The notes beneath the pieces are model-generated. The model was not told the DNA's origin, ran no database searches, and worked only from the letters and a program-made list of their open reading frames with translations. From Octopus vulgaris (Eukaryota), in NCBI GenBank assembly GCA_951406725.2, contig OX597824.1, positions 25,606,001 through 25,670,000 on the forward strand: a stretch of 64,000 nucleotides of DNA, in the 5' to 3' direction. Made by a program: the position numbers and the translations under genes. This document shows positions 3,657 to 53,899 of this stretch, piece by piece. Positions within the stretch are counted from its first letter, which is position 1; each line of letters starts with the position of its first letter.

Positions 3657-4238
3657 ATATATATTATCTCATTGTCCTGCTGATATATTTCTTCTCCAAT
3701 TATGTTATGTTCCGCTAGTACAAGTACTCAGGGATTGTTCCTTTCGTTTCCTAAGACGTTCTTATGCAGTACGTATGTGTCTGTGTGTCTATGCATGTGT
3801 ATTTGTGTTTGTGATTGTCCCCTGTCACACCTATTGACTACATGCATTGGTTTCTCTAAGTTCCAAAGGTTCAGCAGAAGTGACAACTGATTAACTACAA
3901 GACTTTTAACCAAAGTAAGCAGAGAATTTAATTTCTCCGACTAAACCCTTCGAAGATATTCTCCATCATGGCAGCCATCCAATGATTGAAACAAGTAAAA
4001 GGTAAAACGTAGTCTATGTAAGTTCAGTTCCTTTTAGTACTATTTTCTCTATGTTGTGTGTATATCTAAGTCCTAGAGTTTGATTATGAATTTGTCTATA
4101 CCAAAGTAATGATGGAGCTTGAGGATAATATTCCTTATTTCTATTTTTTCCTATTCAGATTGAACAGAGAAAACACACCCCAAAATTGGAGAAGGATGTC
4201 ATCATATACGAATTTAACATGGATCAGACGGTCACATA

Positions 4239-4730
4239 ATGCGCGCACAATTTGATCAATTTTCTATTGTTAAATTTGGTACTATTATTGAATTACCAGC
4301 CCAACAGAAACCCGGCAAAATGATACCCAAAATTCTATATACATATGATGCTGATTTATCAGGAAATCATTACAATATTGACAATATTAAAAAGGTACAA
4401 ACCACTCGTGTTGCCGTCATGTCTGGTCGTCGTCGCTTGAAATTATCATTCAGACCTCGTTATACTTGGAGAACAGATGACAAAAGTTACGATCCTAATG
4501 ACACCATGCCTTATCCAACAATGTACATGCGCGGTATACAGAAGTGGGACATGGCAGAGGCTCCCTTCGGTCCCGTGCCTGATAAGGCTTTCCCTCAGCA
4601 CTCCATAAATGGTATTGCAATGGTCGTACAGTCTTCGAAAGATACCGTCATGGATTATACTAATTTCGTTGTTATTCGGTGTTATGGTAGGCGCAACGGT
4701 GCTACATATACCGAACATTCACGGGAATGA
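4239..4730 (+). CDS. cap: Putative CRESS-virus capsid protein, N-terminally truncated (no Arg-rich arm)
   Basis: 163-aa uninterrupted ORF convergent with Rep. FDQFSIVKF...P, YTYDAD and RRRLKLSFRPR resemble circo/CRESS jelly-roll capsid blocks. Call rests on position plus weak motif recognition. Confidence 0.65.
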   Translation: MRAQFDQFSIVKFGTIIELPAQQKPGKMIPKILYTYDADLSGNHYNIDNIKKVQTTRVAVMSGRRRLKLSFRPRYTWRTDDKSYDPNDTMPYPTMYMRGIQKWDMAEAPFGPVPDKAFPQHSINGIAMVVQSSKDTVMDYTNFVVIRCYGRRNGATYTEHSRE

Positions 4731-4866
4731 CTATCCACAACAGACACTGCATCAGGATGAGTGATTGAGTAAACGTCGCGCGACGTGACGAAGATGCGAA
4801 TGTTATGGGGTTTTTAGTATACATAAAACGTGCAGAGAATAATGAGAACAAACAAATTTTTATCAT

Positions 4867-4884
4867 TGAATAAAATTTTATTCA
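4867..4884. terminator. Palindromic bidirectional polyadenylation signal of the viral insert
   Basis: Perfect 18-bp palindrome TGAATAAAATTTTATTCA gives AATAAA on + (4869-4874) and on - (4877-4882, overlapping the rep TAA). Confidence 0.7.
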
Positions 4885-5651
4885 GAATCTACACTTTCGT
4901 ATTGATCGAGTTTTTCATTCAACATTTTAATTTTTTCCATTAACATTTCATTCTCTCTTCTAACAAATTGACAGTTACACTTTTCAATGTTATTATTACA
5001 GAAGAAAGAAAGATTTCCATCCATTGCGTCATGTCTATTCAGAGGGACAGGGGAAGTAACTCTTTTCCTCTTGTTGTATTTCTCCATTTCCAGCTCACAC
5101 TCAGATCTACACATTTCATCAATCAGTTCTTCTGTATCTTGACTATACATGTCTGTTATATCTTTCAATGGCGGCATATTCTCAATATCAATTTCATTTT
5201 CCAAAAATTCTTGCAGTATTTCTTTGAAAATCATGGTATTATCCGCTGGTGTTATAGTTCTTATATCCCATCTGTCAGCACTCATTTTAGTTTGGTCAGG
5301 TTCGTAATTTGCGAATACCACAACATGCGGTATTTCAAAACTCTTAGTAACGGAGACATATTTGCATGAGCATATTAAACCATTTTTAATACTCTCCATC
5401 ACTTCATAATTTATATGTTGCTCCTGGCTTCTTGTTAAATCAAATATTACTATTCTCTGTCCATTGTACATGAATTTTAAATCCAGGCTGCGACCATTTT
5501 CAAATCTTATACCATCTAAAGTTTGTAGGTATCTCGATAGGTATGTTTTCCCACTGTTTCCTACAGGGTCTGCATACCATATAATTTTTCTTTGATCTGG
5601 TTCATTCACCAATTCTTTCAATAGTTCATCTTGCCATTTTCTCCAAGTGCT
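4878..5651 (-). CDS. rep: CRESS-virus Rep, SF3 helicase half plus C-terminal extension (HUH endonuclease domain missing)
   Basis: WQ..L...PDQRKIIW, Walker A GNSGKT, Walker B VIFDL, YEVMESIKNG...KY, motif C HVVVFAN, Arg finger SADRW: the layout of nanovirus/alphasatellite-like Reps. The first ~40 aa of the ORF-track call (to 5768) are antisense GPCR sequence. Confidence 0.93.
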   Translation of the reverse strand, partial: STWRKWQDELLKELVNEPDQRKIIWYADPVGNSGKTYLSRYLQTLDGIRFENGRSLDLKFMYNGQRIVIFDLTRSQEQHINYEVMESIKNGLICSCKYVSVTKSFEIPHVVVFANYEPDQTKMSADRWDIRTITPADNTMIFKEILQEFLENEIDIENMPPLKDITDMYSQDTEELIDEMCRSECELEMEKYNKRKRVTSPVPLNRHDAMDGNLSFFCNNNIEKCNCQFVRRENEMLMEKIKMLNEKLDQYESVDSE

Positions 5652-6942
5652 AGACGGTATGGAGTATAATATCACCATCGAAGAACTCAACAGACAACAA
5701 GTTTTGATATGCCTTCCGTTTACTATTCTTATTGCATTAGCTATGACCATGGGTTTTGTTGGGAACATTTTAACTATTTACGTTTATGGATTTCGTTTGA
5801 AATTATCTCCAACTTATTTCTTTGTTGTGATGCTGGCGTGTGTTGATTTGATAATGTGTGCCTGTGTGATACCTGCTCGTATTGTCCAAAACATTTACCC
5901 TTTGATGACCACCTGGGATATATTGTGCAAGTTCCATTACTGTTTAGTAGGATTCACAGTTGCTTCTAACCATGGTTTTCTTCTGGCCATCGCAGCAGAG
6001 ATACAGAAAAGTATGCCAACCACTGAAGTCTCAGATAACAATGAAAGCTGCGAAAATCATCACAGCCTGTATTTTTATTTTCTCCGCAATACAGGGAAGT
6101 ATTGTTCTTCTTAACTATGGAAGTATTAAGAAACCAACTAATTATCCTGGTATCTACAGCTATTCCTGTTCAACAAATAACTACAAGAAGACTAACTATT
6201 ATCAACTTGCATGCTTTGCCTTCGACAGTCCCTTAGTAATGGTTACGTTTGTTATTCTCTTTATTCTGTACATCATAATTCTTCGACATATGAAGGGTTT
6301 GGAGAAAACAAAAGGTGTCGAACAACAACAAAATAGCAATAGTATTACAAACATCTGCTGTCCCGATAATATTCAAGAAAAGTGAACAGCCTTATCATTA
6401 CTGGTACTGTAAACTCTTCGGTTGCATATTTCTGCGAATAATATCATTTTTCTTTGGAATAGAAAAAAGTCTATCTTTATTTCTTCTTTTGCTGGAGTCT
6501 CAAATTTAGGTTAAATCAGTGTTTCTCAAAGGGGACGGTCGGACAAGTTTTTTTGAGAAAATTTGGTTTAAATGTTTGACAACTCAGCACCGTCCATTGG
6601 ACGAGGGTGTTTAGCTCGTATGTATATATATATCTATATGTTCATATATAGTTGAAAGTTCATAACTGTAGCACAGGGCCTTTTCTCTATATAGTATAAC
6701 TGTGAACTATATCGACCTTGATTGAGTAGATGCATGGATAAGAGTTATCAACAATGACCGTTTCAATTTTTGTACATCGCACTCTACATTATTCAGTATA
6801 GAATTCATTATTTAATATGGTATGATGTGATTTAAAGGTGATTTTGTTGCAATTTCTAGCAGGTTAGTAACGGTAGAGAGTGTCTCTCGCTAGAGGTTGT
6901 TAAAATGGAAGACCTCATGTCACTAATGTGTCTTCATATGGT

Positions 6943-7476: not shown

Positions 7477-8293
7477 TCGCGCGTAGATGTATGTATACAC
7501 ACACTCATTCACGACCCCCACCTCCCACACACACATATTGCTAATATTTTGCAGAAGCAACAGCGTGACTCAAGGTCCGAGAATTTTGTTCGTTTGTGCA
7601 CATATATATAGAGAGAGAGAGACTGACATCCAGAGTTTTCACTTATTCCTGTATGAAGAACATTGTTGCTTTAGCTTCATATCATTGTGTGAGCTCCACA
7701 ACTACCGAACGAACCTAAAATATCTGAGTAAGTGCCTTGTTTTAATTTATTGTGTATTCAAATGGTCTTTTGTGGGGAAGAAATATATGTAGCTGAAACT
7801 AGAAAAAAAAAATTATCTCCTTGCCCTGCTGATATATTTCTTCTCCAATTATGTTATGTTCGTGCAGTACGTATGTGTCTGTGTGTCTATGCATGTGTAT
7901 TTGAGTTTGTGATTGTCCCCTGTCACACCTATTGACTACATGCATTGGTTTCTCTAAGTTCCAAAGGTTCAGCAGAAGTGACAACTGATTAACTACAAGA
8001 CTTTTAACCAAAGTAAGCAGAGAATTTAATTTGTCCGACTAAACCCTTCGAGGATATTCTCCATCATGGCAGCCATCCAATGATTGAAACAAGTAAAAGG
8101 TAAAACGTAGTCTATGTAAGTTCAGTTCCTTTTAGTACTATTTTCTCTATGTTGTGTGTATATCTAAGTCCTAGAGTTTGATTATGAATTTGTCTATCCC
8201 AAAGTAATGATGGAGCTTAAGGATAATATTCCTTATTTCTATTTTTTCCTATTCAGATTAAACAGAAAAAACACACCCCTAAATTGGAGAAGG

Positions 8294-9493
8294 ATGTCAT
8301 CATATCCGAATTTAACAGACGGTACGGAGTATATCACCATCGAAGAACTCAACAGACAACAAGTTTTGATACGACTTCCGTTTACTATTCTTATTGCATT
8401 AGCTATGACCACGGCTTTTGTTGGAAACATTTTAACTATTTACGTTTATGGATTTCGTTTGAAATTATCTCCAACTTATTTCTTTGTTGTGATGCTGGCG
8501 TGTGTTGATTTGATTATATGTACCTGTGTGACACCAGCTCGTATTGTCCAAAACATTTACCCTTTGATGACAACCTGGGATATATTGTGCAAGTTCCATA
8601 TGAGCTTAACAGTATTCACAGGACTTTGTAACTATGGTTTTCTACTGGCCATTGCAACAGAGAGATACAGAAAAGTATGCCAACCACTGAAGACTCAAAT
8701 AAATATGAGAGCTGCGAAAGTCATCACAGCCTGTATTTTTATTTTCTGTGCAACACAGGGAATTATGGCTCTTCTTTACTTTGGAAGTGTCAAGAAACCA
8801 ACTAATTATCCTGGTATCTACAGCTATTCCTGCTCAGCAAATAACTACAACAAGACTAACTATTATCAACTTGGATTCTTTGCCTTCTACAGTCTCTTAG
8901 CAATGGTTACGTTTGTTATTCTCTTTATTCTGTACATCATAATTCTTCGACATATGAAGGGTTGGGAGAAAACAAAATGTGTCGAACAACAACAAAATAG
9001 TAATAGTATTACAAACAACTTCTGTCCCGATAATATTCAAGAAAAGTGGCTTAATGTACCAGAAAGTATTGATTCTAATCGATTACCTTCGAATCTTTCT
9101 ACAGAAGAAGTGGAATTGTCAAATACCAAAATGTCATCTAAAGTTTCCTCAGATGAAATATCAAAGGTATATACAAAAAGTATTGCGCCTCTCAGGGCTA
9201 AACTACGGGAAGCGAACAACGAAAGACGAGCAACCGAACAAGCCGACAGGATAAAGCGCACCACTATAACGATGATGATGATTACTGTAACCTTTATAGT
9301 GACTTATTTACCTACCTTTGGTACCATGATATTAGATGCAGTTTTGAAGTCATTAAACACGATGTCGACACCATCATCATTCTTCTATTGGTTCGCACGT
9401 CATTGCTTTTACATCAGTTCTTGCACAAATCCCATTGTTTACAGCTGCAGGAACCAGAATTTTATGGACGAAATTAAAAAAATTTCAGACTAA
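8294..9493 (+). CDS. Class A (rhodopsin-like, peptide-receptor-like) GPCR paralog B
   Basis: Seven hydrophobic segments with GN (TM1), LACVD (TM2), C..ERY (TM3), YLP (TM6), NPIVY (TM7) and an N-terminal NLT sequon. Likely start is the ATG at 8294, after a polypyrimidine-CAG splice acceptor at 8256 (ORF track starts 8207). Confidence 0.92.
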   Translation: MSSYPNLTDGTEYITIEELNRQQVLIRLPFTILIALAMTTAFVGNILTIYVYGFRLKLSPTYFFVVMLACVDLIICTCVTPARIVQNIYPLMTTWDILCKFHMSLTVFTGLCNYGFLLAIATERYRKVCQPLKTQINMRAAKVITACIFIFCATQGIMALLYFGSVKKPTNYPGIYSYSCSANNYNKTNYYQLGFFAFYSLLAMVTFVILFILYIIILRHMKGWEKTKCVEQQQNSNSITNNFCPDNIQEKWLNVPESIDSNRLPSNLSTEEVELSNTKMSSKVSSDEISKVYTKSIAPLRAKLREANNERRATEQADRIKRTTITMMMITVTFIVTYLPTFGTMILDAVLKSLNTMSTPSSFFYWFARHCFYISSCTNPIVYSCRNQNFMDEIKKISD

Positions 9494-12851: not shown

Positions 12852-13633
12852 TGCGTGTGCGTATGTATGCATATATGTATGTATGCATGTATATGTGTAT
12901 GTATATATATGTGTGTAAGTGTGTGCATATATGTATTTGTAAGTATGTGTGCGCGTATGAGTATGTATGTATGCTTGCACACGTGTATATATATGTGTGT
13001 GTGTGTATATATATGGATGCGCGTGCGTGTGTGCACGTGTATGGGTACGCATGTATATGTGTATGTGCGTGTATGCGTATACGTGTATGTATGTATGTGT
13101 GTGCGTAGATTTGTATTTGTATGTGTGAGTGTGTATATATATATATATATATATATACATATATATAGATGGGTGTGTGTATGCGTATAAATGCATGTAA
13201 GTATGGATGTATGGATGTATGTATGTATGTATACGTATGTATGTGTGTATGTGTGTATGTATGTATATATATATATGTGTGTATATATGTTTGTGTATGT
13301 ATATATATGTGTATGTATGTGTGTGTATATGTATGTGTGTATGTGTATGTATGTGTATATAGTAGCAAGCTACACAGCTTCAAAACTAACTGACCTTAAA
13401 TATATATATATTTGTAACCACGTGTTTGCCTACAAACCCGTAAGTACGCTTTCATTTAACTACAAATTGTTATATACACCTGTTTTTCTTTTAATATCCT
13501 CAAACAACCAAATAATCAAAAACTCACACCCTTAAGAGAGAACATTTATATATATATACACTTCTTTAACTCCCAAGAAAGAATATATATATTTTCAAAA
13601 ATCAAAAGGAAAACAAACAAAAGAAAAACAAAC

Positions 13634-14755
13634 ATGACTAACTTGCAGGCCTGCAACAGACGAAATTGGTCTGATAACGAAATTGATGTTTTAATAAACA
13701 CATGGCACTCTCTTTCCCAAACAGAAAATCTAAATGTCTTGTGTTTGAATGAGATTGCCGAAAAAACATCACAAGTGGTCAACACACGATCCGTCAAACA
13801 GATTCGTAGCAAGTTGAAACATATCGAAGTATCTTTCAAACTGATAAGAGGCCATTATGAAAAGCTTCTACATATTTTCACAGTTCAAGAACAACAACAG
13901 CTAGAAAATCAGCAGCCACAACAACAACAACAACAGAATGAGCCACTCCTGGTTCCCAACACAATGGCTGACCCTGACATCGGTCAGGCACAACAACAAC
14001 AACAACAGCCACAGCAACAAGAACAACAACAGCCACTCCTCAACTCTAGCTTACTAGACGATTCACTAAATGCCAGTATCTTTTCACCGCTCTCACAGCA
14101 ACCACCACAATTATCATCATCATCATCACCACCGCTGCCACCATCGTCTTCTATCACCAAAAATACCAACAGAAAACCAAATAAGAAACCACTGCCCTCT
14201 TCCCCCACATCACCACCTCAATACTACTGCAGTAACAAAAACTTAAAGAAACATAGGAAGCAGAATGCGCCCCCCACGGCACAAACAAGAAATCCCCAAA
14301 TATGCCGCTATTCACTGCGCCAGAGACTCTGCACAAATAGTGACTGCATCTTCACGCATCTACCCGGCACTAGACGCACTACTGGCCAAGGCCAAAGCAC
14401 GCATCCCACAATAACATCAACACCACCAAATAGTAAATCGAAATTCAAAACACACACAACTCGGAGTCCCAAAATCTGCCGGTATTCCCAACGTGAGAGA
14501 ACATGTCTACTGAGTGACTGTCCCTTCACTCATCTTCCAGGGACCCGACGCACAAACAGAAACGGGGCCTCAAGCCAACACACAAACCTGAATAACAATA
14601 AAAATAGAAACACACCATGCTGCAGTAATGCTGGTCCAGTCTTTTCAGGAAGACACAAAAACAACAACAACAAAAGTGGAAACTACAACCCTATCCAACA
14701 GTGCAACCACACCTCCAGCCAAAAACTGCTCCCTAAGCAGGAAAATTCTTTTTAG
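13634..14755 (+). CDS. LINE ORF1: Myb/SANT(trihelix)-like N-terminus, polyQ, two CCCH zinc fingers
   Basis: NWSDNEIDVLINTW...RSVKQIRSKLKHI; Q-rich tracts; two CRYSxRxRxCxxxDCxFTHLPGTRR repeats. Confidence 0.8.
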   Translation: MTNLQACNRRNWSDNEIDVLINTWHSLSQTENLNVLCLNEIAEKTSQVVNTRSVKQIRSKLKHIEVSFKLIRGHYEKLLHIFTVQEQQQLENQQPQQQQQQNEPLLVPNTMADPDIGQAQQQQQQPQQQEQQQPLLNSSLLDDSLNASIFSPLSQQPPQLSSSSSPPLPPSSSITKNTNRKPNKKPLPSSPTSPPQYYCSNKNLKKHRKQNAPPTAQTRNPQICRYSLRQRLCTNSDCIFTHLPGTRRTTGQGQSTHPTITSTPPNSKSKFKTHTTRSPKICRYSQRERTCLLSDCPFTHLPGTRRTNRNGASSQHTNLNNNKNRNTPCCSNAGPVFSGRHKNNNNKSGNYNPIQQCNHTSSQKLLPKQENSF

Positions 14756-17700
14756 CCATGTTGAACATGGCAAAAGAGATACACAAAAACATTCTAGCCA
14801 TCACTCAACACCATCCTATGCTATTACCCCAGTGCACCAATTCCCCACATTGCTGCCACTAACACACACAAAAAATCCAAGCCCCCTGCAACAGTCAAAA
14901 CCAGCCACTACACTAACCTCCACATTCCTACTCAATGCACAAGGTGTCAGCCCTTCCATCAATGCACAAAAATGGAAGGTCCAATTCATTGAAGACTGGG
15001 TTGGTAACCATTCACACCACATCCCTTTCTTCATTCTCACTGAGACCCACCTTGACAACTCCCACTTGGAAGCCGAAGTGAGAGTGAAGAATTTCACAAC
15101 CATCCGCGCGGATCGTATCGGCAGGAGGAAGGGTGGAACTGCCATTTTCCTGCATGATTCATTTACGGCAGATGGAAATAGTATATTCTCCAACGGCTAC
15201 TGTGAATCAGTCACCGTGCACAACAAAGCCAATGATCTGACAGTAATTGGGCTCTATAGGCCGCCCCAAACACCCATACTGTGCTTTAAAGAATGCCTCA
15301 ACAGCATTAAGTGCTTTATTCAACAGTGCCATTCTAGCAACATACTCATGATGGGAGACTTCAATCTACCCTGTGTTGACTGGACTACAAACTGTTTGAA
15401 ACCAAGCACTCCCGCCTCAACCGCTGACAAAGAAGCAGCAGAGTCACTTTTCGACTTTACGAATGAGTTTTTCTTGTCCCAACTTGTCCTTGCACCAACA
15501 AGACATCAGAACATTTTGGACCTAGTGTTTAGTAACCACACTAACACTATACATAACGTTACAGTGGAAAAAACCCTTCTTTCAGACCATGACATGGTTC
15601 TCTGTAACATGAAATTCCACCAGCCGAAAGCTAATCCTAGTGACCTTCCTCCAGCCCACCCATTTGACAACATGGATCTCCATAAAGCCAACTGGGATGC
15701 AATCAGGAACGAGCTATCAAATGTTGACTGGTCCTTTACACATACACACATCTCCACCAACCATAAAACATCTTGGCAGATCTTTGTAGACACCGTCACA
15801 GACATATGTGCAAAACACTCCCCACCAAGACCTGTGAACAAAAAGTGCAGAATCCCCCAAAACAGAAAAACCATTATCAGAAAAATAAAAAGAACAAACA
15901 AAAAAATTAACAAACTAAAGTACTGCCAACAGCAACACACACATTCGACGGCTATCGCACTGCTTGAATCCAAAAAATATAACCTCCAACAATGCATGAA
16001 GTCCCTCATCAATAACCAAAGATCAGCTGAGGAGAAGTGGGCCATTGAAAAAATCAAACTCAACCCCAAAGTGTTCTTTTCATTTGCGAGGAAACGCAGG
16101 GTCACTGTCTCCACTGTAGGCCCTCTAATTGACGAAACTGGCACTCTCCAAGATAATGCCAAATCCATGGCCGAGATACTGCAGAAACAATACTGCTCTG
16201 TTTTCAGCAATCCTGATATGGCCGATCTGGGCTGTATCAGTGATGTCAACCCCCAACACACTATATCGGACATAACGTTTAGTGCCCCTGATGTCTTAGC
16301 GGCGATAAACGAAATAAAACACAATTCAGCAGTAGGCCCCGATAGGTTCCCTGCTTGTGTCCTGAAGGTGTGTCGACACCAACTTGCATCTCCCCTTGCT
16401 AATCTGTGGAGAAACTCACTGGATGCTGGCTATATTCCAAAAAACCTTCTGTCCCAGTCTGTTGTCCCAGTTTTCAAAAAGGGAAACAAGTCCCTTGCAG
16501 TGAATTACCGTCCGATCTCACTCACCTCTCATATCATCAAGGTATTTGAGAGGGTGGTGAGATCTCAAATAACCCAATTTCTGGAAAGCAACAGACGGCT
16601 GATCTCCAACCAACATGGGTTCCGTAATGGAAGGGACTGCCTAACGCAGCTCCTGCATCACTTTGAGGACATTTTGAGAGCTTTGGGAGAGGGCTCCAAC
16701 ACCGATGTCATCTACCTTGATTTCAGTAAGGCCTTCGACAGGGTCGATCACAAGATCCTATTGAAAAAACTATCCAACATTGGTGTCTCTGGAAAGTTAC
16801 TGAAATGGATTAAGTGTTTCCTGACAGACAGATCTCAACATGTTGTAGTTGAAGGGGTAAAATCAAGCCCAGCCAAAGTCAGTAGTGGCGTTCCGCAAGG
16901 CACTGTGCTGGGCCCACTTCTTTTCATCATTTACATTAATGACATTAATGACATCATCAAGCACAGCAACATAAAAATCTTTGCAGATGACTCCAAGCTA
17001 CAGAAGGTCATAAATGAGGCGAGTGACCGGACATGCCTTCAGTCAGATCTACTGGCTGTTATCCAATGGGCAGAAAAAAACAATATGCTGCTGAACGAGG
17101 ATAAATTTGAGCTAATCCACTTTGGAAAAGAGGATGCCCTGAAACTCCCATACTCCCTTCCTTCAGGTGAAACTCTCGCGGCGTCCAACAACATCAGAGA
17201 CTTGGGAGTAATTGTGGACAACAACGTAAGCTGGGCCACTCATATAAACACCAAAGTTGACATGGCCCGCAGAATGTGTTCCTGGATTCTCAGAACTTTC
17301 CAGTCGAGAGATATCCACACCATTATCCTTCTCTTCTCCACTTTTGCCCGACCCCACCTTGAATACTGTTGTCCACTGTGGTCTCCCCACACAATACAAG
17401 GTATCATAAAAGTCGAAGCACCTCAAAGGGCAATCACAAAAAAGATAGATGGCATGACAGGCCTCGACTATTGGGGTCGACTAGAAAAGCTAAAACTCTA
17501 TTCTCTCCAACGTCGTCGTGAGCGCTACATCATCTGCATGATGTGGAAAATATTCCATCAGCATTGCCCAAATGATGTTGGCATCACCTTTAAGGTACAT
17601 CCAAGGCTTGGGCCCCGTGCCATCCGCCCAAAACAAAAATCGCACTCTCATCTCATAACAACAATACGGCACAATTATTTCACCTCAATTGGCCCCGCTC

Positions 17701-17867
17701 TCTTTAACATTACACCAAAATACATTAAAACAGAAACTGACCCTATAGGGTTCAAGAAGTCTTTGGACAGATTCCTTCAAGAAATCCCGGATAAACCCCC
17801 TACACCCGGATATGTCTCTGTAAACAATAACTCTCTACTTGAGTGGGCCATAGTGCCCAAATTCTGA
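14628..17867 (+). CDS. LINE ORF2: apurinic endonuclease + reverse transcriptase
   Basis: LTETHL, GGTAIF, YRPP, MGDFNLP, LDLVF, SDH (APE); YRPISLTS, DFSKAFD, GVPQGTVLGPLLF, FADD (RT). 1079 aa without stops. Confidence 0.96.
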   Translation: MLVQSFQEDTKTTTTKVETTTLSNSATTPPAKNCSLSRKILFSHVEHGKRDTQKHSSHHSTPSYAITPVHQFPTLLPLTHTKNPSPLQQSKPATTLTSTFLLNAQGVSPSINAQKWKVQFIEDWVGNHSHHIPFFILTETHLDNSHLEAEVRVKNFTTIRADRIGRRKGGTAIFLHDSFTADGNSIFSNGYCESVTVHNKANDLTVIGLYRPPQTPILCFKECLNSIKCFIQQCHSSNILMMGDFNLPCVDWTTNCLKPSTPASTADKEAAESLFDFTNEFFLSQLVLAPTRHQNILDLVFSNHTNTIHNVTVEKTLLSDHDMVLCNMKFHQPKANPSDLPPAHPFDNMDLHKANWDAIRNELSNVDWSFTHTHISTNHKTSWQIFVDTVTDICAKHSPPRPVNKKCRIPQNRKTIIRKIKRTNKKINKLKYCQQQHTHSTAIALLESKKYNLQQCMKSLINNQRSAEEKWAIEKIKLNPKVFFSFARKRRVTVSTVGPLIDETGTLQDNAKSMAEILQKQYCSVFSNPDMADLGCISDVNPQHTISDITFSAPDVLAAINEIKHNSAVGPDRFPACVLKVCRHQLASPLANLWRNSLDAGYIPKNLLSQSVVPVFKKGNKSLAVNYRPISLTSHIIKVFERVVRSQITQFLESNRRLISNQHGFRNGRDCLTQLLHHFEDILRALGEGSNTDVIYLDFSKAFDRVDHKILLKKLSNIGVSGKLLKWIKCFLTDRSQHVVVEGVKSSPAKVSSGVPQGTVLGPLLFIIYINDINDIIKHSNIKIFADDSKLQKVINEASDRTCLQSDLLAVIQWAEKNNMLLNEDKFELIHFGKEDALKLPYSLPSGETLAASNNIRDLGVIVDNNVSWATHINTKVDMARRMCSWILRTFQSRDIHTIILLFSTFARPHLEYCCPLWSPHTIQGIIKVEAPQRAITKKIDGMTGLDYWGRLEKLKLYSLQRRRERYIICMMWKIFHQHCPNDVGITFKVHPRLGPRAIRPKQKSHSHLITTIRHNYFTSIGPALFNITPKYIKTETDPIGFKKSLDRFLQEIPDKPPTPGYVSVNNNSLLEWAIVPKF

Positions 17868-23825: not shown

Positions 23826-24138
23826 TATATCTTTTATATAAAATCCGTTCTGTCTGTCTGTCTGTGTGTGTGTCTTCTCGGAACTCGGGCATCCTCCATC
23901 CGATTGCGCTCAAATTTGATATGTAGATACCGACGGTATCACGGCATGTATAAGTCTTGAAAAAATTACAAAAATCGATTCCAGATGAGAATGCGATCAA
24001 TAAAGCCGTTTTGGTCCTGCTTTTCTTCCGTCAACCTGTACATAACTGCACCTTCCATTTTTTCTTGTTTTTGTACTGCTTAAAGGCACGTTTCTTTCCT
24101 GCCAAGCTTACTGTTTAAACCATGTTTGTGTTCTCCCA
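23826..24138 (+). mobile_element. 5' portion of a Helitron-like non-autonomous element; copy at ~42206-42518
   Basis: TCTTTTATATAAAATCCGTT(CTGT)n start resembles the other Helitron-like heads. 3' end not identified. Confidence 0.4.
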
Positions 24139-28630: not shown

Positions 28631-29164
28631 TATCTCCTTGCCCTGCTGATATATTTCTTCTCTTATGTTATGTTCAGCTAGTACAAGTACTCAGCTAGTA
28701 CAAGTACTCAGGGATTGTTCCTTTCGTTTCTCGTACAGTACGTATGTGTCTGTGTGTCTATGCATGTGTATTTGAGTTTGTGATTGTCCCCTGTCACACC
28801 TCTTGACTACATGCATTGGTTTCTCTAAGTTCCAAAGGTTCAGCAGAAGTGACAACTGATTAACTACAAGACTTTTAACCAAAGTAAGCAGAGAATTTAA
28901 TTTGTCCGACTAAACCCTTCGAGGATATTCTCCATCATGGCAGCCATCCAATGATTGAAACAAGTAAAGGGTAAAACGTAGTCTATGTAAGTTCAGTTCC
29001 TTTTAGTACGATTTTCTCTATGTTGTGTGTATATCTAAGTCCTAGAGTTTGATTATGAATTTGTCTATACCAAAGTAAAGATGGAGCTTGAGGATAATAT
29101 TCCTTATTTCTATTTTTTCCTATTCAGATTGAACAGAGAAAACACACCCCAAAATTGGAGAAGG

Positions 29165-30373
29165 ATGTCATCATATAAGAATTTAACAAACGGTACGGAG
29201 TATATCACCATCGAAGAACTCAACATACAACATGTTTTGATAAGACTTCCGTTTACTATTCTTATTGCATTAGCTATGACCACGGCTTTTGTTGGAAACA
29301 TTTTAACTATTTACGTTTATGGATTTCGTTTGAAATTATCTCCAACTTATTTCTTTGTTGTGATGCTGGCGTGTGTTGATTTGATTATATGTACCTGTGT
29401 GACACCAGCTCGTATTGTCCAAAACATTTACCCTTTGATGACAACCTGGGATATATTGTGCAAGTTCCATATGAGCTTAACAGTATTCACAGGACTTTGT
29501 AACTATGGTTTTCTACTGGCCATTGCAACAGAGAGATACAGAAAAGTATGCCAACCACTGAAGACTCAAATAAATATGAGAGCTGCGAAAGTCATCACAG
29601 CCTGTATTTTTATTTTCTGTGCAACACAGGGAATTATGACTCTTCTTTACTATGGAAGTGTCAAGAAACCAACTAATTATTCTGGTATCTACAGCTATTC
29701 CTGCTCAGCAAAAAACTACAAGCCTAACTATTATCAACTTGGATTCTTTGCCTTCTACAGTCTCTTAGCAATGGTTACGTTTGTTATTCTCTCTATTCTG
29801 TACATCATAATTCTTCGACATATGAAGGGTTGGGAGAAAACAAAATGTGTCGAACAACAACAAAATAGTAATAGTATTACAAACAATCTCTGTCCCGATA
29901 ATATTCAAGAAAAGTGGCTTAATGTACCAGAAAGTATTGATTCTAATCGATTACCTTCGAATCTTTCTACAGAAGAAGTGGAATTGTCAAATACCAAAAT
30001 CTCATCTAAAGTTTCCTCAGATGAAATATCAAAGATATATACAAAAAGTATTGCGCCTCTCAGGGCTAAACTACGGGAAGCGAACAACGAAAGACGAGCA
30101 ACCGAACAACCCGACAGGATAAAGCGCACCACTATAACGATGATGATGATTACTGTAACCTTTATAGTGACTTATTTAACTATCTTTGGTACCATGATAT
30201 TAGATGCAGTTTTGAAGTCATTAAACACGATGTCGACACCATCATCATTCTTCTATTGGTTCGCACGTCATTGCTTTTACATCAGTTCTTGCACAAATCC
30301 CATTGTTTACAGCTGCAGGAACCAGAATTTTATGGACGAAATTAAAAAGAATTTCAGACTAAAACAGAAATAA
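29165..30373 (+). CDS. Class A GPCR paralog C (nearly identical to B; TM6 proline replaced by Thr)
   Basis: Same 7TM motifs as B. Splice acceptor at 29127, likely ATG 29165 (ORF track starts 29081). Confidence 0.92.
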   Translation: MSSYKNLTNGTEYITIEELNIQHVLIRLPFTILIALAMTTAFVGNILTIYVYGFRLKLSPTYFFVVMLACVDLIICTCVTPARIVQNIYPLMTTWDILCKFHMSLTVFTGLCNYGFLLAIATERYRKVCQPLKTQINMRAAKVITACIFIFCATQGIMTLLYYGSVKKPTNYSGIYSYSCSAKNYKPNYYQLGFFAFYSLLAMVTFVILSILYIIILRHMKGWEKTKCVEQQQNSNSITNNLCPDNIQEKWLNVPESIDSNRLPSNLSTEEVELSNTKISSKVSSDEISKIYTKSIAPLRAKLREANNERRATEQPDRIKRTTITMMMITVTFIVTYLTIFGTMILDAVLKSLNTMSTPSSFFYWFARHCFYISSCTNPIVYSCRNQNFMDEIKKNFRLKQK

Positions 30374-33161: not shown

Positions 33162-34150
33162 CTTGTTTTATTTATATTTCCTGAGCGCCATACTAATACA
33201 ATTGTTCGTTTGTTTTCCACCTGCCTTCGTCTTTTGTTTATTTTCATAAAGCTTCCCGTTATATATTATGCGCTCACGTGGTCTCACTTTCATCCTATAT
33301 TCTACCAATACCACTATCAACACTTACCTCTACCTTGGATTTTCTTTACCTCTTGGATACTTACCATCGGCTGCACCTCTCTTTCGCGGATCAAAGTGAC
33401 TTTGCATTGATGTGAAATCCTTAAAAAATATACCACGACGTCTACACATTTCTCACCTTGAACTTTCAACCTTGAACTTGTTCGCATAAACTGTCCCGTT
33501 TGTTGTATTTTTATTTTCTCTTATATTACCACTTTTTTTACATTCATTTCATGCTTTCCACATTTTCCTGAATTTTTGTTCTCCTTTCCGTCTTTCTTCC
33601 CTCTCTGGATGTCCATACTCCGTTTCCTCTGCCTGCACCCCCCTTTTTTTTGCCTCCCCCTCTCTCTGCTTCCCTTCTTTCTTTCCCTTTTCCGTTTGCC
33701 CCGTCTTTTCTGCCCCTATCGCTTACTTATCTAGTTTTTTCATACGATTATTATTTATTTTATTTTTTTATTTTTTTTGTTTTTTTGAACGTTTGTTTTT
33801 TCCCCTTTTTTTCTATTTTTTTCATACGATAATTTTTGTTTTTTGTTTTTTTTGTTTTTTCGAACGTTTTTTTTCCGCTATCCCATCATGCCGGATCCTA
33901 GGTCCTACCTCCTCACCCTCAATCACCGTTTGAAGGATCATCTACGTTCGCTTCCTGTATATCGCCTTCAGCCGTCCGTTAATCTCTCTCTACTTCTTTT
34001 AAAAAAACCCGCTTCTCTAGCCATGTCTCTTTCCTAAGCCGCTGCCTACATCACCGACTCATCCCTAAAGGTTTCCGCCTCCACTTCCACCCTGCTCTCC
34101 ACTCGGATTCTTCCATCTTACCCATACTCCGCACCACATCTTACCGCCTT

Positions 34151-37132
34151 ATGCGGGCCACCATTCGCTCCAATCTCTCCAAACTACAAGCCATCAACCG
34201 CCTTCTTCCTCCTGCTTTCTCCACCTTCTTCTCCTCTCTGCCGCCTCTCTATGCTCCAAACACGCTACGCTTCATTATCCATTTGAATCAACTCTTCCAT
34301 CAATTTCTTTCTGATACCAAACTTCGTAAACTCCAATCACTCTTCCATTCCACCCTACCCGACGCCACTACCCCAACTCCTCCACCACCCTTCTCCCCTC
34401 CCGATAGGCTCCATCCACCCACACCTAACCCCACTGCCCCTCCCTACAACCCCTTCTCCCCTCCCGTTAGGCTCCATCCACCTACACCTAACCCTACTGC
34501 CCCGCCCAACCACCCCCCACACACCTCCCCAATCCCTCCCCCTCAGACCTCCACGAGACCTACCACCCCTCCTACTTCTATTCCACCCACCCCTTCTCCA
34601 CTTCCGTCTGTTGTTACCATTCCCCCCGATCTTCCCCTCTCTGCGGCTGAACGCTCCGTCCTTGGTAGGGGTCTGCGTTTCATCCCCCTCACTCCATCCT
34701 GTAAGGAATTCCAGACGCGAGTTGATGTCCACAGCTTTGTGCGCCGTGTCCGGTTGGGTGCGCATTACCACGACTCGCCACCCACACCCAACGAAGAGGA
34801 CGACTGCTTCACTGGCCTGGGCCGCCGACCATCCCCGTGGACGCCTGCCCCTGGCCAGATCCTAGCAGTGGATCTTTTCGCGGGCGCTTGTCAGCGTGCA
34901 TTGGAGCGGTTCAACTTCTCCAGGCGCCAACGCCGCCTCAACATCTCCCCGGCTGAGCTCTTGGCTCTTCGTTCCCTCCAACGGCGCGCTGACATTATCA
35001 TCAAACCGGCTGACAAGGGTGGAGCTGTAGTGGTGTGGCGCGCGGACCTCTATAGGGCCGAGGCTTTCCGCCAACTCAATGACACCTCCTTCTATTCCCC
35101 TCTGCCCTCTAACCCCACACGTAGCTACCAACAGACGGTATCCTCTACTGTCCAAGACCTCATCTCGTCCTCCCGTCTCCCCCGCACCGCATCCAACCTA
35201 ATTGTGCGAACCCCACGTACCCCCACCATTTACTTCCTCCCCAAAATCCACAAACCCAACAACCCTGGCCGCCCCATCGTCTCCGCCTGTAACTGCCCCA
35301 CGGAGCTCATCTCTAAATACCTCGACCGTGTCCTTGCCCCCCTAGTGGCATCTCTTCCCTCCCACATCCACGATACCAACCATGCTCTCCGGCTTTTCAA
35401 CTCTTTCTCCTTTCCTCCCGGCTCCTCCAAAATCCTTTTTACTATGGACATCCAAAGCCTCTATACTGTTATCCCTCACCACGAAGGACTGCAGGCCCTT
35501 CGACACTTTCTTGACCTCCGCTCTAACCCTGTACCTGACACCTCCACACTCATTCGTCTGGCCGAACTTGTCCTTACTCTGAACTGCTTCTCGTTCGCGG
35601 GCGAGTTCTACCATCAGGTCTCGGGAGTGGCCATGGGAACGCGAATGGGCCCCAACTATGCGAACCTGTTCGTTGGCTATGTTGAGGCCCAAATATTCTC
35701 TACTTTCACTGGTCCCACTCCTGAACTATATGGTCGTTATATTGACGACATTATCGGTGCCACCTCACTCTCCCGCGAACATCTAGATTCCTTCCTCTCT
35801 TTCGTCCAATCTTTCCATCCAGCCCTCCACTTCACTTCCACTATCTCCAACACCTCTGTCTCCTTCCTCGACATTTCGGTTAGCATTCTTGACTCCACTC
35901 TTACCACCTCCATTCACTACAAACACACAGACTCACACTCATACCTCAACTTCTCTTCCTCCCACCCAGAACACACCAAGCTTTCCATCCCCTATTCCCA
36001 ATTCCTCCGTCTACGTAGGCTCTGTAGTGACGACCATGACTTTGAGACTCAGTCTCAACGTATGGCTCACCACTTCACCCTACGTGGATACCCCCTCACC
36101 ACTATCCACACCGCCCTTGCCAGAGCACGGTCCGTGGACCGTGTATCTGCTCTCTCTCCCCGAACCCGCCCTGTAGTCTCCCGCCTCCCTTTTCCCCTCA
36201 CTTACCACCCCACGACCCTACGTCTCCAACGCACCATTCTTCGAGCTTTCCGTCGTCTCCAGTCCGACCCGTCCACTTCACACCTCTTCCCTAACCGACC
36301 CCTCCCCTCTTTCAAACGAGCCCACAACCTTCGAGACCTTTTGGTCCATAGCTCCTTCCCTGACCCTACCTCCCAACCCGGCTCGTTCCCCTGCTCCCGC
36401 CCACGTTGCCGCACTTGCCCTTACCTCTCCAACACCACCCGCCTCACTAGCACCCACCATCGACCCTATCCCATCATCCACTCCTTCACCTGCACCTCCA
36501 GCAATATTATCTATTGCATCTCTTGCTCTCTCTGCAATTCCTTGTACATCGGACAAACGGGACGCCGCTTGGCTGACCGGTTCGCGGAACACCTTCGTGA
36601 CATCCACCTTGCGAACGACACACCGGTCTCACGCCATTTCCGCTCCACCGGTCACTCCTTGCAACACCTATCTGTGTTCGGTTTGTCCTTACACAGAGGC
36701 CATCCGGATTCCCGTTTGCGCCGTGAACAGGAATTAATCTTCTCTCTTCGCTCTTATACGCCATTTGGTCTCAACTCTCCCCCCTCCTCATCTAACCCCC
36801 CTCTCCCCCTCCTCACCTATCCTTTCTCCCCCGACCCCTACTTCTTCAGTCCTTCATCCTTTCACCCCTACTCCCCTTCCCTTCTTCCCTCTTTCTCCCT
36901 CCCTCTTCCTCTTCCCTCTGCTCCCTCACTCCCTCTCTCCCCTTCTCTCTCCCCCTCTCCCTCTTTCCTCCTTCATCCCTCTCCTCCCCTTCCTTCTCCC
37001 CATCCTCTCCTCTTCACCCTCCCCTCCCCCTCTTCTTCCCCTCCCCTTCTCCCCCTCTTCTCCCCTCCCCCTCTTCTCCTCACTACACCACATGACTTTA
37101 CACATCACATCACATATGATGTGCCATACTAA
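34151..37132 (+). CDS. Penelope-like polyprotein: reverse transcriptase + GIY-YIG endonuclease
   Basis: KPADKGGAVVV, YFLPKIHK, GRPIVS, MDIQSLYT, GVAMGTRMGP, RYIDD, FLD; CSRPRCRTC and IIYCISCSLCNSLYIGQT...R..EH. Frame is open from ~33983 (FLSRCLHHRLIPKGF), so the true start may be ATG 33888 with one frameshift. The C-terminal ~115 aa are low-complexity read-through. Confidence 0.93.
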   Translation: MRATIRSNLSKLQAINRLLPPAFSTFFSSLPPLYAPNTLRFIIHLNQLFHQFLSDTKLRKLQSLFHSTLPDATTPTPPPPFSPPDRLHPPTPNPTAPPYNPFSPPVRLHPPTPNPTAPPNHPPHTSPIPPPQTSTRPTTPPTSIPPTPSPLPSVVTIPPDLPLSAAERSVLGRGLRFIPLTPSCKEFQTRVDVHSFVRRVRLGAHYHDSPPTPNEEDDCFTGLGRRPSPWTPAPGQILAVDLFAGACQRALERFNFSRRQRRLNISPAELLALRSLQRRADIIIKPADKGGAVVVWRADLYRAEAFRQLNDTSFYSPLPSNPTRSYQQTVSSTVQDLISSSRLPRTASNLIVRTPRTPTIYFLPKIHKPNNPGRPIVSACNCPTELISKYLDRVLAPLVASLPSHIHDTNHALRLFNSFSFPPGSSKILFTMDIQSLYTVIPHHEGLQALRHFLDLRSNPVPDTSTLIRLAELVLTLNCFSFAGEFYHQVSGVAMGTRMGPNYANLFVGYVEAQIFSTFTGPTPELYGRYIDDIIGATSLSREHLDSFLSFVQSFHPALHFTSTISNTSVSFLDISVSILDSTLTTSIHYKHTDSHSYLNFSSSHPEHTKLSIPYSQFLRLRRLCSDDHDFETQSQRMAHHFTLRGYPLTTIHTALARARSVDRVSALSPRTRPVVSRLPFPLTYHPTTLRLQRTILRAFRRLQSDPSTSHLFPNRPLPSFKRAHNLRDLLVHSSFPDPTSQPGSFPCSRPRCRTCPYLSNTTRLTSTHHRPYPIIHSFTCTSSNIIYCISCSLCNSLYIGQTGRRLADRFAEHLRDIHLANDTPVSRHFRSTGHSLQHLSVFGLSLHRGHPDSRLRREQELIFSLRSYTPFGLNSPPSSSNPPLPLLTYPFSPDPYFFSPSSFHPYSPSLLPSFSLPLPLPSAPSLPLSPSLSPSPSFLLHPSPPLPSPHPLLFTLPSPSSSPPLLPLFSPPPLLLTTPHDFTHHITYDVPY

Positions 37133-50049: not shown

Positions 50050-52684
50050 TTTTATGCGTGTGTGTTTGTGTCTGCGTTTGTCCCCCACCACCATCGTTTG
50101 ACAACCGATGTTGGTGTGTTTGCGTCCCCGTAACTTAGCTGTTTGGTAAAAAAAATGATAAAATAAGCACCAGGCTCATAGGGATTAAGTCCAGGAGTCG
50201 ATTACTTCGACTAAAGGGCGTTGCTCCGGCATGGCCACCATAAAATTACTGAAACAAGTAAAAGAATAAAAGAATACCGGAAGAACGTTCCGTACCACTA
50301 AGCCAAGAAGATTCTTTGAATATGTACGATGTACATATCTTCTAAGGGGTATCATCATTCCAGTCAGCGGGATAGTAGAAAGGTAAAGTTCCATATATGC
50401 CTTTCAACCACTCACCTAAAAGACTTCTGTCCTAAATTGAATGAAAAAGAAAAGAAAGCACCTCTCCTACAAGCATCAACAACAGCCAACAAGTCTCAAA
50501 CAAAATAATTAACAGTACTATCGCTTGCAACTACATCAGCCGCGGCAGTACCAATACCTACCATACGAACTCCAAATTCCTCCAAACACTTTTCATCCCC
50601 AGAATATACTACATTTCCCGATGCCAAGCGATCAGACATCACATGTATAGAGAGTCTGGTCAGAACTAGTCGTGAAAAACAAAAAAACAAAAGAAGCAAA
50701 ATCAGGAAGAAAAACAAGTCCACTGACAAAGAAAAGTCTACATCCACATAAATAGAAGAGAGGAAAAAATAAAAGCTGAAAAGCTTTTGGGTGTTTTTAA
50801 CACCCAAAACATACACTACATCACCACCACTGTCATAAATACCTGAAGCACTACTTCGAATTCATTAATATTCAGTTGATCTGAGGCAGCGAGCTGGCAG
50901 AAACGTTAGCACGCCGTCGGAGTCGGACGTTATTTTTTTGTTCGGAAGGACGGAAAAAAAGTGAAAAATTGTAAAAAAGAAAGACGTAACGAGATCAAAT
51001 CGCGCGAGGCGCTTGTCGTTGCGTGCCGTTGCTTTATAGAAGGAACGCTTGTTGTTACTTTTTATAGAAGTTGTCAATTGAATTGTCTATGTTATAACCG
51101 GGATTTTATTACCAGCTGTTGTTTTTTGGAAAAAAAAAGTAAGTTCTTTTTGAATTGTTATTCGAAGTATATTATTTGATTGTCATTTATTGAAGTCGCT
51201 AAGGAGGGGTAGGCCAATAATGGCCAGCCCGAAGGCGGACAGAACTGAGGACCGAACCTAGGTCCTAAGCAAAAGTCCAGTTAGCAGAATGTCCAGTCCA
51301 GAAAGAATACCAGTTAGCAGGATGTCCAGTCCAGAAAGAATGGGTATACCCGGTTTTTTCTCTGATACCGATGAAGAGGAAAAAAGCGTAACCAAAAAAG
51401 AAAAATTGCAGGTACGCAGAAATATAGACGTGCCAAGCTTGGCAAAGAAGATGTTAAACTTCGCCGAAGCGGCAGGTCCCAAAGAAAGAAAAATTAATTT
51501 ATCAAAACTGGAAGAAATAAAGAAGACTATATCAAGAAACTGTTATGAAATAAAAAATACGGCAGTCACAGGAATCTCGTGAAGGGATAGAGAAAAGAAC
51601 AATAATTTATAACTTTTTTCATATATTCTAACCCGTTCTGCTTTTATATATACGCATTATTTCAGAGTCTCTTTGATAACAGGAAAACTGTATTCATTTG
51701 TTATTTCGTACTTTGCATAACTTTTCTTACTTTTATAGTTTTGTTATTCATTCACTTTGAAAAGTAGTCAACAATCGACACATCGGCACTTCCCTTTCCA
51801 GATGATAAACTTCTATATAAATTTTGACTTAGTACTTCGGTTGTCTGTTGACATGCTTATTCTTCTATTTCTATATTCTAAGTCCAATTTCGTTACGCTG
51901 ATGGCTGTTAAGTCAGATTCCTTTTTCCCTCAGTATTTCTTTCATTCTTACATTTTATACTTCAACTTTATATGCGCTGTTTTTTTTTTATTATTTCAGT
52001 GTTTGGGGTTATACTCAGTTCTTTAATAATGTCTTTCTTGGTTGCTGCGATTTCATTCTTGTGTTATTGAAGAAGTGGGATATCATCATCTTCATTTTCT
52101 GGGACCTGATTGCTATCTTCATTATTTTAGCATTTTTTCTTTTATATATATTATCTCATTGCCCTGCTGATATATTTCTCTTTTCCAATTATGTTATGTT
52201 CAGCTAGTACAAGTACTCAGGGATTGTTCCTTTCGTTTCCTAAGACGTTCTCATGCAGTACGTATGTGTCTGTGTGTCTATGCATGTGTATTTCAGTTTG
52301 TGATTGTCCCCTGTCACACCTCTTGACTACATGCATTAGTTTCTCTAAGTTCCAAAGGTTCAGCAGAAGTGACAACTGATTAACTACAAGACTTTTAACC
52401 AAAGTAAGCAGAGAATTTAATTTGTCCGACTAAACCCTTCGAGGATATTCTCCATCATGGCAGCCATCCAATGATTGAAACAAGTAAAAGGTAAAACGTA
52501 GTCTATGTAAGTTCAGTTCCTTTTAGTACTATTTTCTCTATGTTGTGTGTATATCTAAGTCCTAGAGTTTGATTATGAATTTGTCTACCCCAAAGTAATG
52601 ATGGAGCTTGAGGATAATATTCCTTATTTCTATTTTTTCCTATTCAGATTGAACAGAAAAAACACACCCTTAAATCGGAAAAGG

Positions 52685-53899
52685 ATGTCATCATATACGA
52701 ATTTAGCAGACGATACGGAGAATAATATCACCATCGAAGAACTCAACAGACAACAAGTTTTGATAAGACTTCCGTTTACTATTTTTCTTGCATTAACAAT
52801 GACCATTGGTTTCGTTGGAAACATTTTAACTATTTACGTTTATGGATTTCGTTTGAAATTTTCACCAACTTATTTCTTTGTCGTGATGCTGGCTTTCGTT
52901 GATTTGATAATATGTACCTGTGTGATACCAGCTCGTATTGTCCAAAACATTTACCCTTTGATGACAACCTGGGATATATTGTGCAAGTACCATTTGTGTT
53001 TAGCAATATTCACAGGATTTTGTACCTGTGGTTTTTTACTGGCCATTGCAACGGATAGATACAGAAAAGTATGCCAACCACTGAAGACTCAAATAAATGT
53101 GAAAGCTGCGAAAATCATCTCAGTCTGTATTTTTATTTTCTGTGCAACACAGGGAAGTATTGCTCCTCTTTATTATGGAAGTATTAAGAAACCAACTAAT
53201 TATCCTGATATCTACAGCTATTCCTGCTCAGCAAATAACTACAAGAAGCCTAACTATTATCAACTTGGATTCTTTGCCTTCTACAGTCTCTTAGCAATAG
53301 TTACGTTTGTTATTCTCTTTATTCTGTACATCATAATTCTTCGACATATGAAGGATTGGGAGAAAACAAAATGTGTCGAACAACAACAAAATAGCAATGG
53401 TATTACAAACATCCGCTGTCCCGATAATATTCAAGAAAAGTGGCTTAATGTACCAGAAATTATTGATTCTAATCAATTACCTTCGAATCTTTCTACAGAA
53501 GATGTGGAATTGTCTAATACCAAAATGTCATCAAAAGTTTCCTCAGATGAAATATCAAAGGTATATACGAAAAGTATTGCGCCTCTTAGGGCTAAACTAC
53601 GGAAAACGAACAAAGAAAGACGAGCAACCGATCACGCCGACAGGATAAAGCGTACCACTATAACGATGATGATGATTACTGTAATCTTTATAGTGACTTA
53701 TTTGCCTGGCATTGGTGCCATGATATTAAGTGCAGTTTTGAAGTCATTAAACACGATGTCGATACCATCGTCATTCTTCTATTGGTTAGCACGACATAGT
53801 TTTTACATCGGTTCTTGCACAAATCCCATTATCTACAGCTGGAGGAACCAGAATTTTATGAACGAAATTATAAAAATGTTCAGTCTAAAACATAAATAA
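52685..53899 (+). CDS. Class A GPCR paralog D (most divergent intact copy)
   Basis: GN, LAFVD, DRY, YLP and NPIIY motifs. Splice acceptor at 52647, likely ATG 52685 (ORF track starts 52598). Confidence 0.92.
   Translation: MSSYTNLADDTENNITIEELNRQQVLIRLPFTIFLALTMTIGFVGNILTIYVYGFRLKFSPTYFFVVMLAFVDLIICTCVIPARIVQNIYPLMTTWDILCKYHLCLAIFTGFCTCGFLLAIATDRYRKVCQPLKTQINVKAAKIISVCIFIFCATQGSIAPLYYGSIKKPTNYPDIYSYSCSANNYKKPNYYQLGFFAFYSLLAIVTFVILFILYIIILRHMKDWEKTKCVEQQQNSNGITNIRCPDNIQEKWLNVPEIIDSNQLPSNLSTEDVELSNTKMSSKVSSDEISKVYTKSIAPLRAKLRKTNKERRATDHADRIKRTTITMMMITVIFIVTYLPGIGAMILSAVLKSLNTMSIPSSFFYWLARHSFYIGSCTNPIIYSWRNQNFMNEIIKMFSLKHK

Follow-up and report, generated by a model that had tools for sequence, protein, structure and literature searches.

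The nearest classified relatives of the element described here, among single-stranded DNA viruses with circular, Rep-encoding genomes (CRESS-DNA viruses), are the Anicreviridae, whose named genomes are monopartite, ambisense and about 2.1-2.3 kb long. These viruses come from whole invertebrates or environmental samples, and their true host is uncertain. Nanoviruses, with one gene per segment, and alphasatellites, which have no cap, are associated with plant hosts. Here, we analysed a 64,000-nucleotide stretch of the Octopus vulgaris genome (contig OX597824.1, positions 25,606,001 to 25,670,000; hereafter the window), in which 1,432 bases of viral origin (4220-5651) interrupt a G-protein-coupled receptor (GPCR) gene, copy A, after codon 8. 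With a probability of roughly 85%, we read this insert as a portion of a circular single-stranded DNA virus that was recently inserted into the germline and stems from an octopus-infecting lineage within or beside the Anicreviridae.

CRESS Rep-like sequences, some with open frames, are already reported from mussel and snail (bivalve and gastropod) assemblies (PMC6069186). In the portion of that report available to us, all new elements derive from rep and none from cap, elements retaining cap besides rep are uncommon, and O. bimaculoides was screened (supplement) yet is absent from Table 1. Like those invertebrate elements, the octopus insert is a Rep-like sequence endogenous in a mollusc assembly; unlike them, it holds cap and rep together and has a defined empty site. 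No paper on cephalopod CRESS elements was found in the literature searched, which excluded most subscription papers; Zhao, Lavington and Duffy 2021 may list an O. bimaculoides Rep. The accessible part of PMC13282606 contains neither 'virus' nor 'viral', and those of PMC5923481 and of the PMC9615429 supplement gave no match. The features of the insert and its host exon are as follows.

4196..4219, plus strand: codons 1-8 of GPCR copy A, with the host ATG at 4196, recognized by paralogue match.
4220..5651, no strand assigned: the whole viral insert, made of the 3' part of cap, the 3' intergenic region and the 3' part of rep, without a replication origin.
4220..4232, plus strand: left junction; the first few bases have no clear source, and the next 8 match the target site of the host.
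4218..4730, plus strand: cap fragment of 170 codons with an internal ATG at 4239, without the basic N-terminal arm; predicted circovirus-type single jelly roll.
4731..4877, no strand assigned: 3' intergenic region between the convergent stops, with a palindrome, AATAAA signals and a run identical in a related copy at C12 of the same genome.
4878..5651, minus strand: rep fragment of 257 codons, encoding the superfamily 3 (SF3) helicase and a tail of ~120 residues; endonuclease domain absent.
5652..6384, plus strand: remainder of the GPCR copy A exon, with 2 bases missing near 5996 and cut at 6384.

Three paralogues of copy A that lie in the window define the borders of the insert: B (8168-9493, a 7tm_1 receptor in a Pfam domain scan), C (29039-30373) and D (52559-53899). 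The left host flank up to 4219 is 93-98% identical to them and the right flank from 5652 is 90-91% identical, while the 1,432 bases have no second match within the window. No host base was lost at the insertion point and a single A is common to both sides. The original prediction, made on the letters of the window, had described a 1.43-kb segment missing from three paralogues that splits copy A after codon 8 with essentially no loss of host bases and carries two stop-free convergent frames; the analysis agrees on every point, the frames being plus 4218-4730 and minus 5651-4878, with both genes cut at their 5' ends. It had also excluded a target-site duplication. This stands as far as the break itself is concerned, where only the one A is shared, and is qualified by an 8-base copy of the target site at 4225-4232, which is only suggestive because a match as long turns up in 4 of 91 control windows (an earlier count, with the shared A counted twice, gave 7 bases and 4.6% of overlapping windows). 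Such a left-end copy could fit templated repair, although it is statistically weak. No replication origin is present in the insert, where two nonanucleotide-like words lie inside rep with stems of only 1 and 3 bp; devoid of both an origin and the Rep endonuclease, it cannot replicate. The insert has no poly(A) tail, and the follow-up of the locus returned no Rfam match.

Evidence that the junctions are physical comes from sequencing runs. Twenty-four were listed and X1, X2, X4 and X5 were examined, small shares of the remaining runs being left unused. About 90% of the insert words are present in 3 of the 24 listed runs, from two samples and two studies. In X1 and X2 (two samples, two studies), contigs covering 4775-5695 cross the right junction into 44 host bases, and contigs covering 4190-47xx cross the left one into 30 host bases. 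All four contigs show 0 differences from the window, and the left ones start exactly at the position expected if there were a branch at 4219, on a 30-mer unlike B, C and D. A third sample, X4, yielded an internal 250-base piece identical to the insert. In X5, which is another, related organism (organism B), a contig joins 4218 to 5652, and the insert itself is matched by no more than one short, loose-ended piece; X1 too contains the 4218-to-5652 join. As seen in contigs, viral DNA is joined to the host chromosome in more than one sample, and an empty site is seen as well. The join in X1, taken with the starts of the left contigs, suggests an empty copy-A allele within the same species, and we lean towards an insertion that still segregates there. 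Contig depth was dropped as a measure of zygosity, being unreliable within a paralogue array, and none of the 24 listed runs is an RNA holder of the insert. Reads spanning both junctions, proposed as a check, are thus represented by contigs that reach host DNA on each side, and the earlier argument that identifiable host sequence at the junctions speaks against contamination or chimerism gains from their complete identity across two studies. Indeed, the possibility of an assembly chimera or a contaminating virus, which the tandem-array context and the frequency of CRESS sequences as contaminants might favour, is hardly credible in view of identical junction-crossing contigs in two studies and a split that falls exactly within a host exon with zero loss.

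The host gene also gives an order of events. Copy A belongs to a GPCR tandem array on C11 of about 10 copies (12 matches from 11 candidates, including two short pieces) and carries two lesions besides the insert, the 2-base loss near 5996 and the 3' truncation at 6384, where 4 shared bases join a repeat with further copies at 24138 and 42518. Contigs of copy-A type were found in X5, with 0 mismatches over 5911-6019, in a region (5911-6026) where the paralogues differ at 17 places. They keep the 2 bases near 5996 and continue across the 6384 cut, reaching 16 bases past it in the part examined; the truncation is therefore the earliest lesion and common to both organisms. The 2-base frameshift and the virus insertion would then postdate the truncation or have sorted differently. 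Since copy A was truncated before the virus arrived, no working receptor gene was destroyed. Compared with the window, 3 of about 576 bases are different in the X5 pieces, not counting the gap, which makes the two organisms close relatives and the insertion a young one. Together with zero differences among the samples examined, this upholds the recent integration originally proposed. At 25.49-25.74 Mb of C11, the paralogues are single-exon-like, in tandem, about 10 in number and 77-91% identical to copy A. Elsewhere in the window, long open frames at 13460-17867 and 33983-37132 presumably represent a two-ORF (open reading frame) retrotransposon without long terminal repeats and a Penelope-like reverse transcriptase.

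The viral nature of the rep fragment rests on several concordant features. All four SF3 motifs named in the original prediction (GNSGKT, VIFD, VFAN and DRW, which we take to be Walker A, Walker B, motif C and the arginine finger) lie in the minus frame 5651-4878, and the fragment matches PF00910 with an E-value of 2.4e-5 in a Pfam scan. A homologue search returned 154 matches among 321 candidates, with E-values down to 1.6e-50; among the 120 listed, most of the full-length ones carry PF02407. The best named matches are an Octopus bimaculoides record (89% identical) and an O. vulgaris one (53%), and on this basis we assume an octopus as host. The O. bimaculoides record was considered as the same insertion and rejected, its Rep extending 5' of the junction of the insert. 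The fragment starts at residue 180 of the 365 of a named viral Rep, and hence the Rep endonuclease is missing; parts of this HUH endonuclease are present in a copy at C15 and at C14, and are cut off in the insert. The last ~120 residues align with all four octopus-type sequences tested, of which two are named Octopus and the other two are unnamed, but not with any of seven other Reps. This tail (window 5241-4878, minus strand), found only in the octopus-type Reps tested, combines an acidic stretch and a cysteine cluster. An Atlas search with the tail gave no usable match, and a PDB sequence search with Rep nothing significant. Related Reps also occur on ENA contigs of 34-716 kb and in a record of the gastropod Batillaria attramentaria (P0007, P0012, P0014, P0090 and P0193), and are possibly further endogenous copies in other animals.

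The cap fragment begins near residue 80 of a longer relative. Scanned directly against Pfam, it matches no family; when 1.84 billion proteins were searched with a profile built from 7 close copies, 18 were matched. Circo_capsid is matched by 4 of the 13 Cap homologues scanned, all below the curated cut-off, and an Atlas search placed Cap nearest to Cressdnaviricota clusters with a recognition value below the threshold of the tool. A PDB sequence search with the Cap profile returned nothing significant. Folding from the single sequence failed, with a predicted local distance difference test (pLDDT) score of 29, and was replaced by an AlphaFold2 model from a 21-row alignment, a beta sandwich of pLDDT 77. 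Against BFVD, this model has 96 matches at E <= 0.001, and all the named ones listed are capsids; anicrevirus capsids account for 4 of the best 5, the fifth being unnamed. A Foldseek comparison with the PDB gave none at E <= 0.001, and the best matches in VIA, at modest Z, were a bat circovirus capsid (Z 6.8, root-mean-square deviation (rmsd) 3.7, 134 aligned) and the beak and feather disease virus (BFDV) capsid (Z 6.4, rmsd 3.5, 121 aligned). The structure check proposed for Cap thus came out in favour of a jelly roll: the model predicts a single jelly-roll capsid protein, with weak matches to solved structures. One close relative, P0123 (WP_400166885.1, 83% identical to Cap), carries an Erwinia amylovora label and lies on a contig of 2,467 bases; DNA from a virus or an animal has probably been misassigned there to a bacterial assembly.

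Between the two genes, the intergenic region holds a 14-base perfect palindrome at 4773-4786 and AATAAA polyadenylation signals on the plus strand at 4869 and on the minus strand at 4877-4882. The C12 copy is identical at 145 of 155 positions, including a 51-base run (4754-4804), and the palindrome common to both copies is likely to be a cis signal. Folding of the region is no better than that of shuffled sequences (z -0.84).

Taken together, Rep matches, Cap model and convergent layout agree with the original prediction of an endogenous CRESS-DNA virus fragment with ambisense cap and rep. Its further statement that the Rep is nanovirus- or alphasatellite-like holds for a CRESS SF3 Rep and gives way on affiliation, the nearest classified relatives being Anicreviridae, in the same order as the nanoviruses. 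Over 131 columns, the helicase is 58, 55 and 50% identical to Dragonfly larvae associated circular virus-10 (Manawavirus), Littorina sp. associated circular virus (Rakkovirus) and Palaemonetes grass shrimp associated circular virus (Otevirus), respectively; identity is 41% to an amesuvirus and 39% to an ourobovirus. An IMG/VR scan with the Rep of a full-length relative collected 79 contigs; the Cap profile recognizes seven of these at E <= 2e-13. In all seven, cap lies opposite rep and the cap strand bears a nonanucleotide stem-loop. They rank among the best 9 by helicase score, and three are named Anicreviridae. The capsid of one of them (L023) was included in the profile, but had first been found by the close-copy profile. 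The octopus Reps form one clade, at 100/99 in a 70-row helicase tree and 100/97 in a 31-row Rep-core tree, whose rows are a chosen subset of the matches; P0005, counted as octopus in the 70-row tree, is without known organism. The Anicreviridae grouping took in 3 named members (plus one inferred), that is 3-4 of 9 genera, with ourobo-, amesu- and circoviruses apart.

The lineage shares with the Anicreviridae a Cap family, by profile and fold, an ambisense layout and, in the C12 copy, an origin-like TAGTATTAC on the cap strand. It has a Cressdnaviricota-type Rep with an SF3 helicase and the monopartite ambisense layout with an anicrevirus Cap, a feature taken from named genomes rather than from a definition of the International Committee on Taxonomy of Viruses (ICTV). 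It differs from that family by the strongly supported clade of its Reps, by the Rep tail, which is not found in named members, by a Cap whose identity to the best named capsid is only about 24%, and by the rep-strand position of the origin-like site in the C15 copy; moreover, named members come from environmental or whole-animal sampling, whereas the octopus link is a germline junction. Circoviridae have the same ambisense layout and capsid fold, but their helicase is only 20-24% identical and a starred branch lies between their Rep clade and the octopus Reps in both trees. The helicase motifs are similar to those of Nanoviridae and Alphasatellitidae, and Nanoviridae share the order Mulpavirales. 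Neither group fits, because the former have one gene per segment and the latter no cap, whereas cap and rep are contiguous and convergent here; a table in PMC11945456 lists Nanoviridae as segmented and plant-infecting. These comparisons point to an insert that belongs to the Anicreviridae (Mulpavirales) or a sister group and not to the nanoviruses. The lineage is best filed as anicrevirus-like, probably in a new genus, rather than as a proven member.

Related loci were found at 13 places in the same genome, the window insert and 12 others. This is a lower bound, and weak Rep matches, absent from the trees, may be other lineages. Searches gave 9 places from 17 candidates for the Rep helicase (8 loci with the window insert), 6 from 7 for Cap and 1 from 3 for PF02407. 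Several other copies are broken, and two at C31, which share flanks at 95%, are a single duplicated insertion. The C12 copy (L002, near 6.09 Mb) holds cap, the intergenic region and the last ten rep codons, with its origin-like site 109 bases further on, and looks like a rep-deleted defective viral molecule. Its cap differs from that of the window at 134 positions, 92 of them third positions, and among 159 codons 78 differences are synonymous and 26 change the amino acid. These mostly synonymous differences indicate divergence as viruses and, therefore, separate captures. In this copy, the intergenic region is far better conserved than the coding part. In the C15 copy (L097, near 38.11 Mb), cap and rep are both present, each of them broken, and are enclosed by two origin-like stem-loops at a distance of 2,144 bases. 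Its TAGTATTAC has a stem of 9, against a stem of 5 in the C12 copy, and lies on the rep strand, unlike those of the C12 copy and named anicreviruses. A lone Rep endonuclease fragment at C14 (L102, near 64.34 Mb) resembles Reps of anicre-, circo- and ouroboviruses to about the same degree. As judged from these sequences, the other copies appear to be independent captures of related viruses, and the insert one of a family of fossils in O. vulgaris and a second octopus species rather than a single event. The octopus or cephalopod host anticipated in the original prediction is thereby strengthened by the 89% identical O. bimaculoides Rep, the germline junction and the 13 places.

How the virus reached the chromosome can be pictured as a chance capture. 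A linear piece of the double-stranded replicative form would have entered a germline chromosome break and been patched in by host end joining. The target, a member of the tandem GPCR array, had by then become a truncated pseudogene, and the insertion was therefore probably neutral and then drifted; the open frames would reflect youth rather than host use.

Among other explanations, the one that survives best, although unlikely, is a virus replicating in a parasite or symbiont of the octopus, with its DNA reaching the octopus germline now and then. Several cressdnavirus families are tied to protist parasites and not to the sampled animal, as part of PMC9615429 reports, and the data examined hold neither free virus nor octopus RNA holder. 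Against this, there are 13 places in one genome plus a record from a second octopus species, and the closest Reps, three or four in number, fall in a single tight clade; with so many germline captures, direct infection of octopuses fits better. Somewhat less probable is that Rep or a retrotransposon, and not the repair of a break by the host, drove the insertion and left a short target-site duplication: a stretch of seven to eight target bases is repeated close to the left end and the window contains long reverse-transcriptase frames, but extra bases lie outside the repeat, whose length is also found in 4 of the 91 controls mentioned above. Ends that lie off the viral origin, the absent Rep nuclease and the crossing of both polyadenylation signals, without a poly(A) tail, argue against Rep-directed integration and an mRNA retrocopy. 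It is quite improbable that the host keeps and uses the fragment, the GPCR promoter driving a shortened Cap or small RNAs that hinder a related virus. Cap does run in the GPCR sense just downstream of its start, with the in-frame ATG at 4239 and the polyadenylation signal at 4869, and both frames are open; however, two upstream ATGs (4196 and 4219) are in other frames, other copies are broken, and youth alone explains the open frames because no differences separate the samples examined.

Several points weigh against a recent germline capture of an octopus virus close to the Anicreviridae. Octopus Reps and named anicreviruses group at only 83/76 and 80/62, and nanovirus and alphasatellite Reps are absent from both trees; the suggested Rep phylogeny delivered a firm octopus clade set apart from circoviruses, and a weak anicrevirus grouping. 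The top BFVD capsid match was already in the alignment used for the Cap fold. No intact natural genome of the lineage came to light, and the proposed search of virome data found no free circular one: no relative was confirmed by scanning IMG/VR with Cap or the helicase, or metagenomes with the Cap profile. Both junctions are supported by contigs, with no long read seen; the 30 host letters of the left-junction contigs are one short of the 31-letter bridging rule, and the assembly may itself derive from one of the two full holders. The 4218-to-5652 joins in X1 and X5 could derive from a paralogue and not from copy A. Finally, the repair mechanism is inferred from the arrangement of bases alone.

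To conclude, the value of this locus lies in the host link and in the clear order of events; the mechanism is not new, and the receptor gene had been broken beforehand. The clean octopus junction, the repeated captures and the second octopus species tie a lineage in or adjoining the anicrevirus family to cephalopods. We see an even chance that octopuses host a still-circulating, undescribed lineage of genus level in or beside the Anicreviridae, with many germline entries and an insertion so young that it is still segregating. If true, this would be the first germline-based host link for Anicreviridae found in the literature searched, and a marker of when and where the virus circulated. Besides, the fossils might be used as probes for a living virus in wild and farmed octopus, and the insertion as a presence/absence marker for populations.
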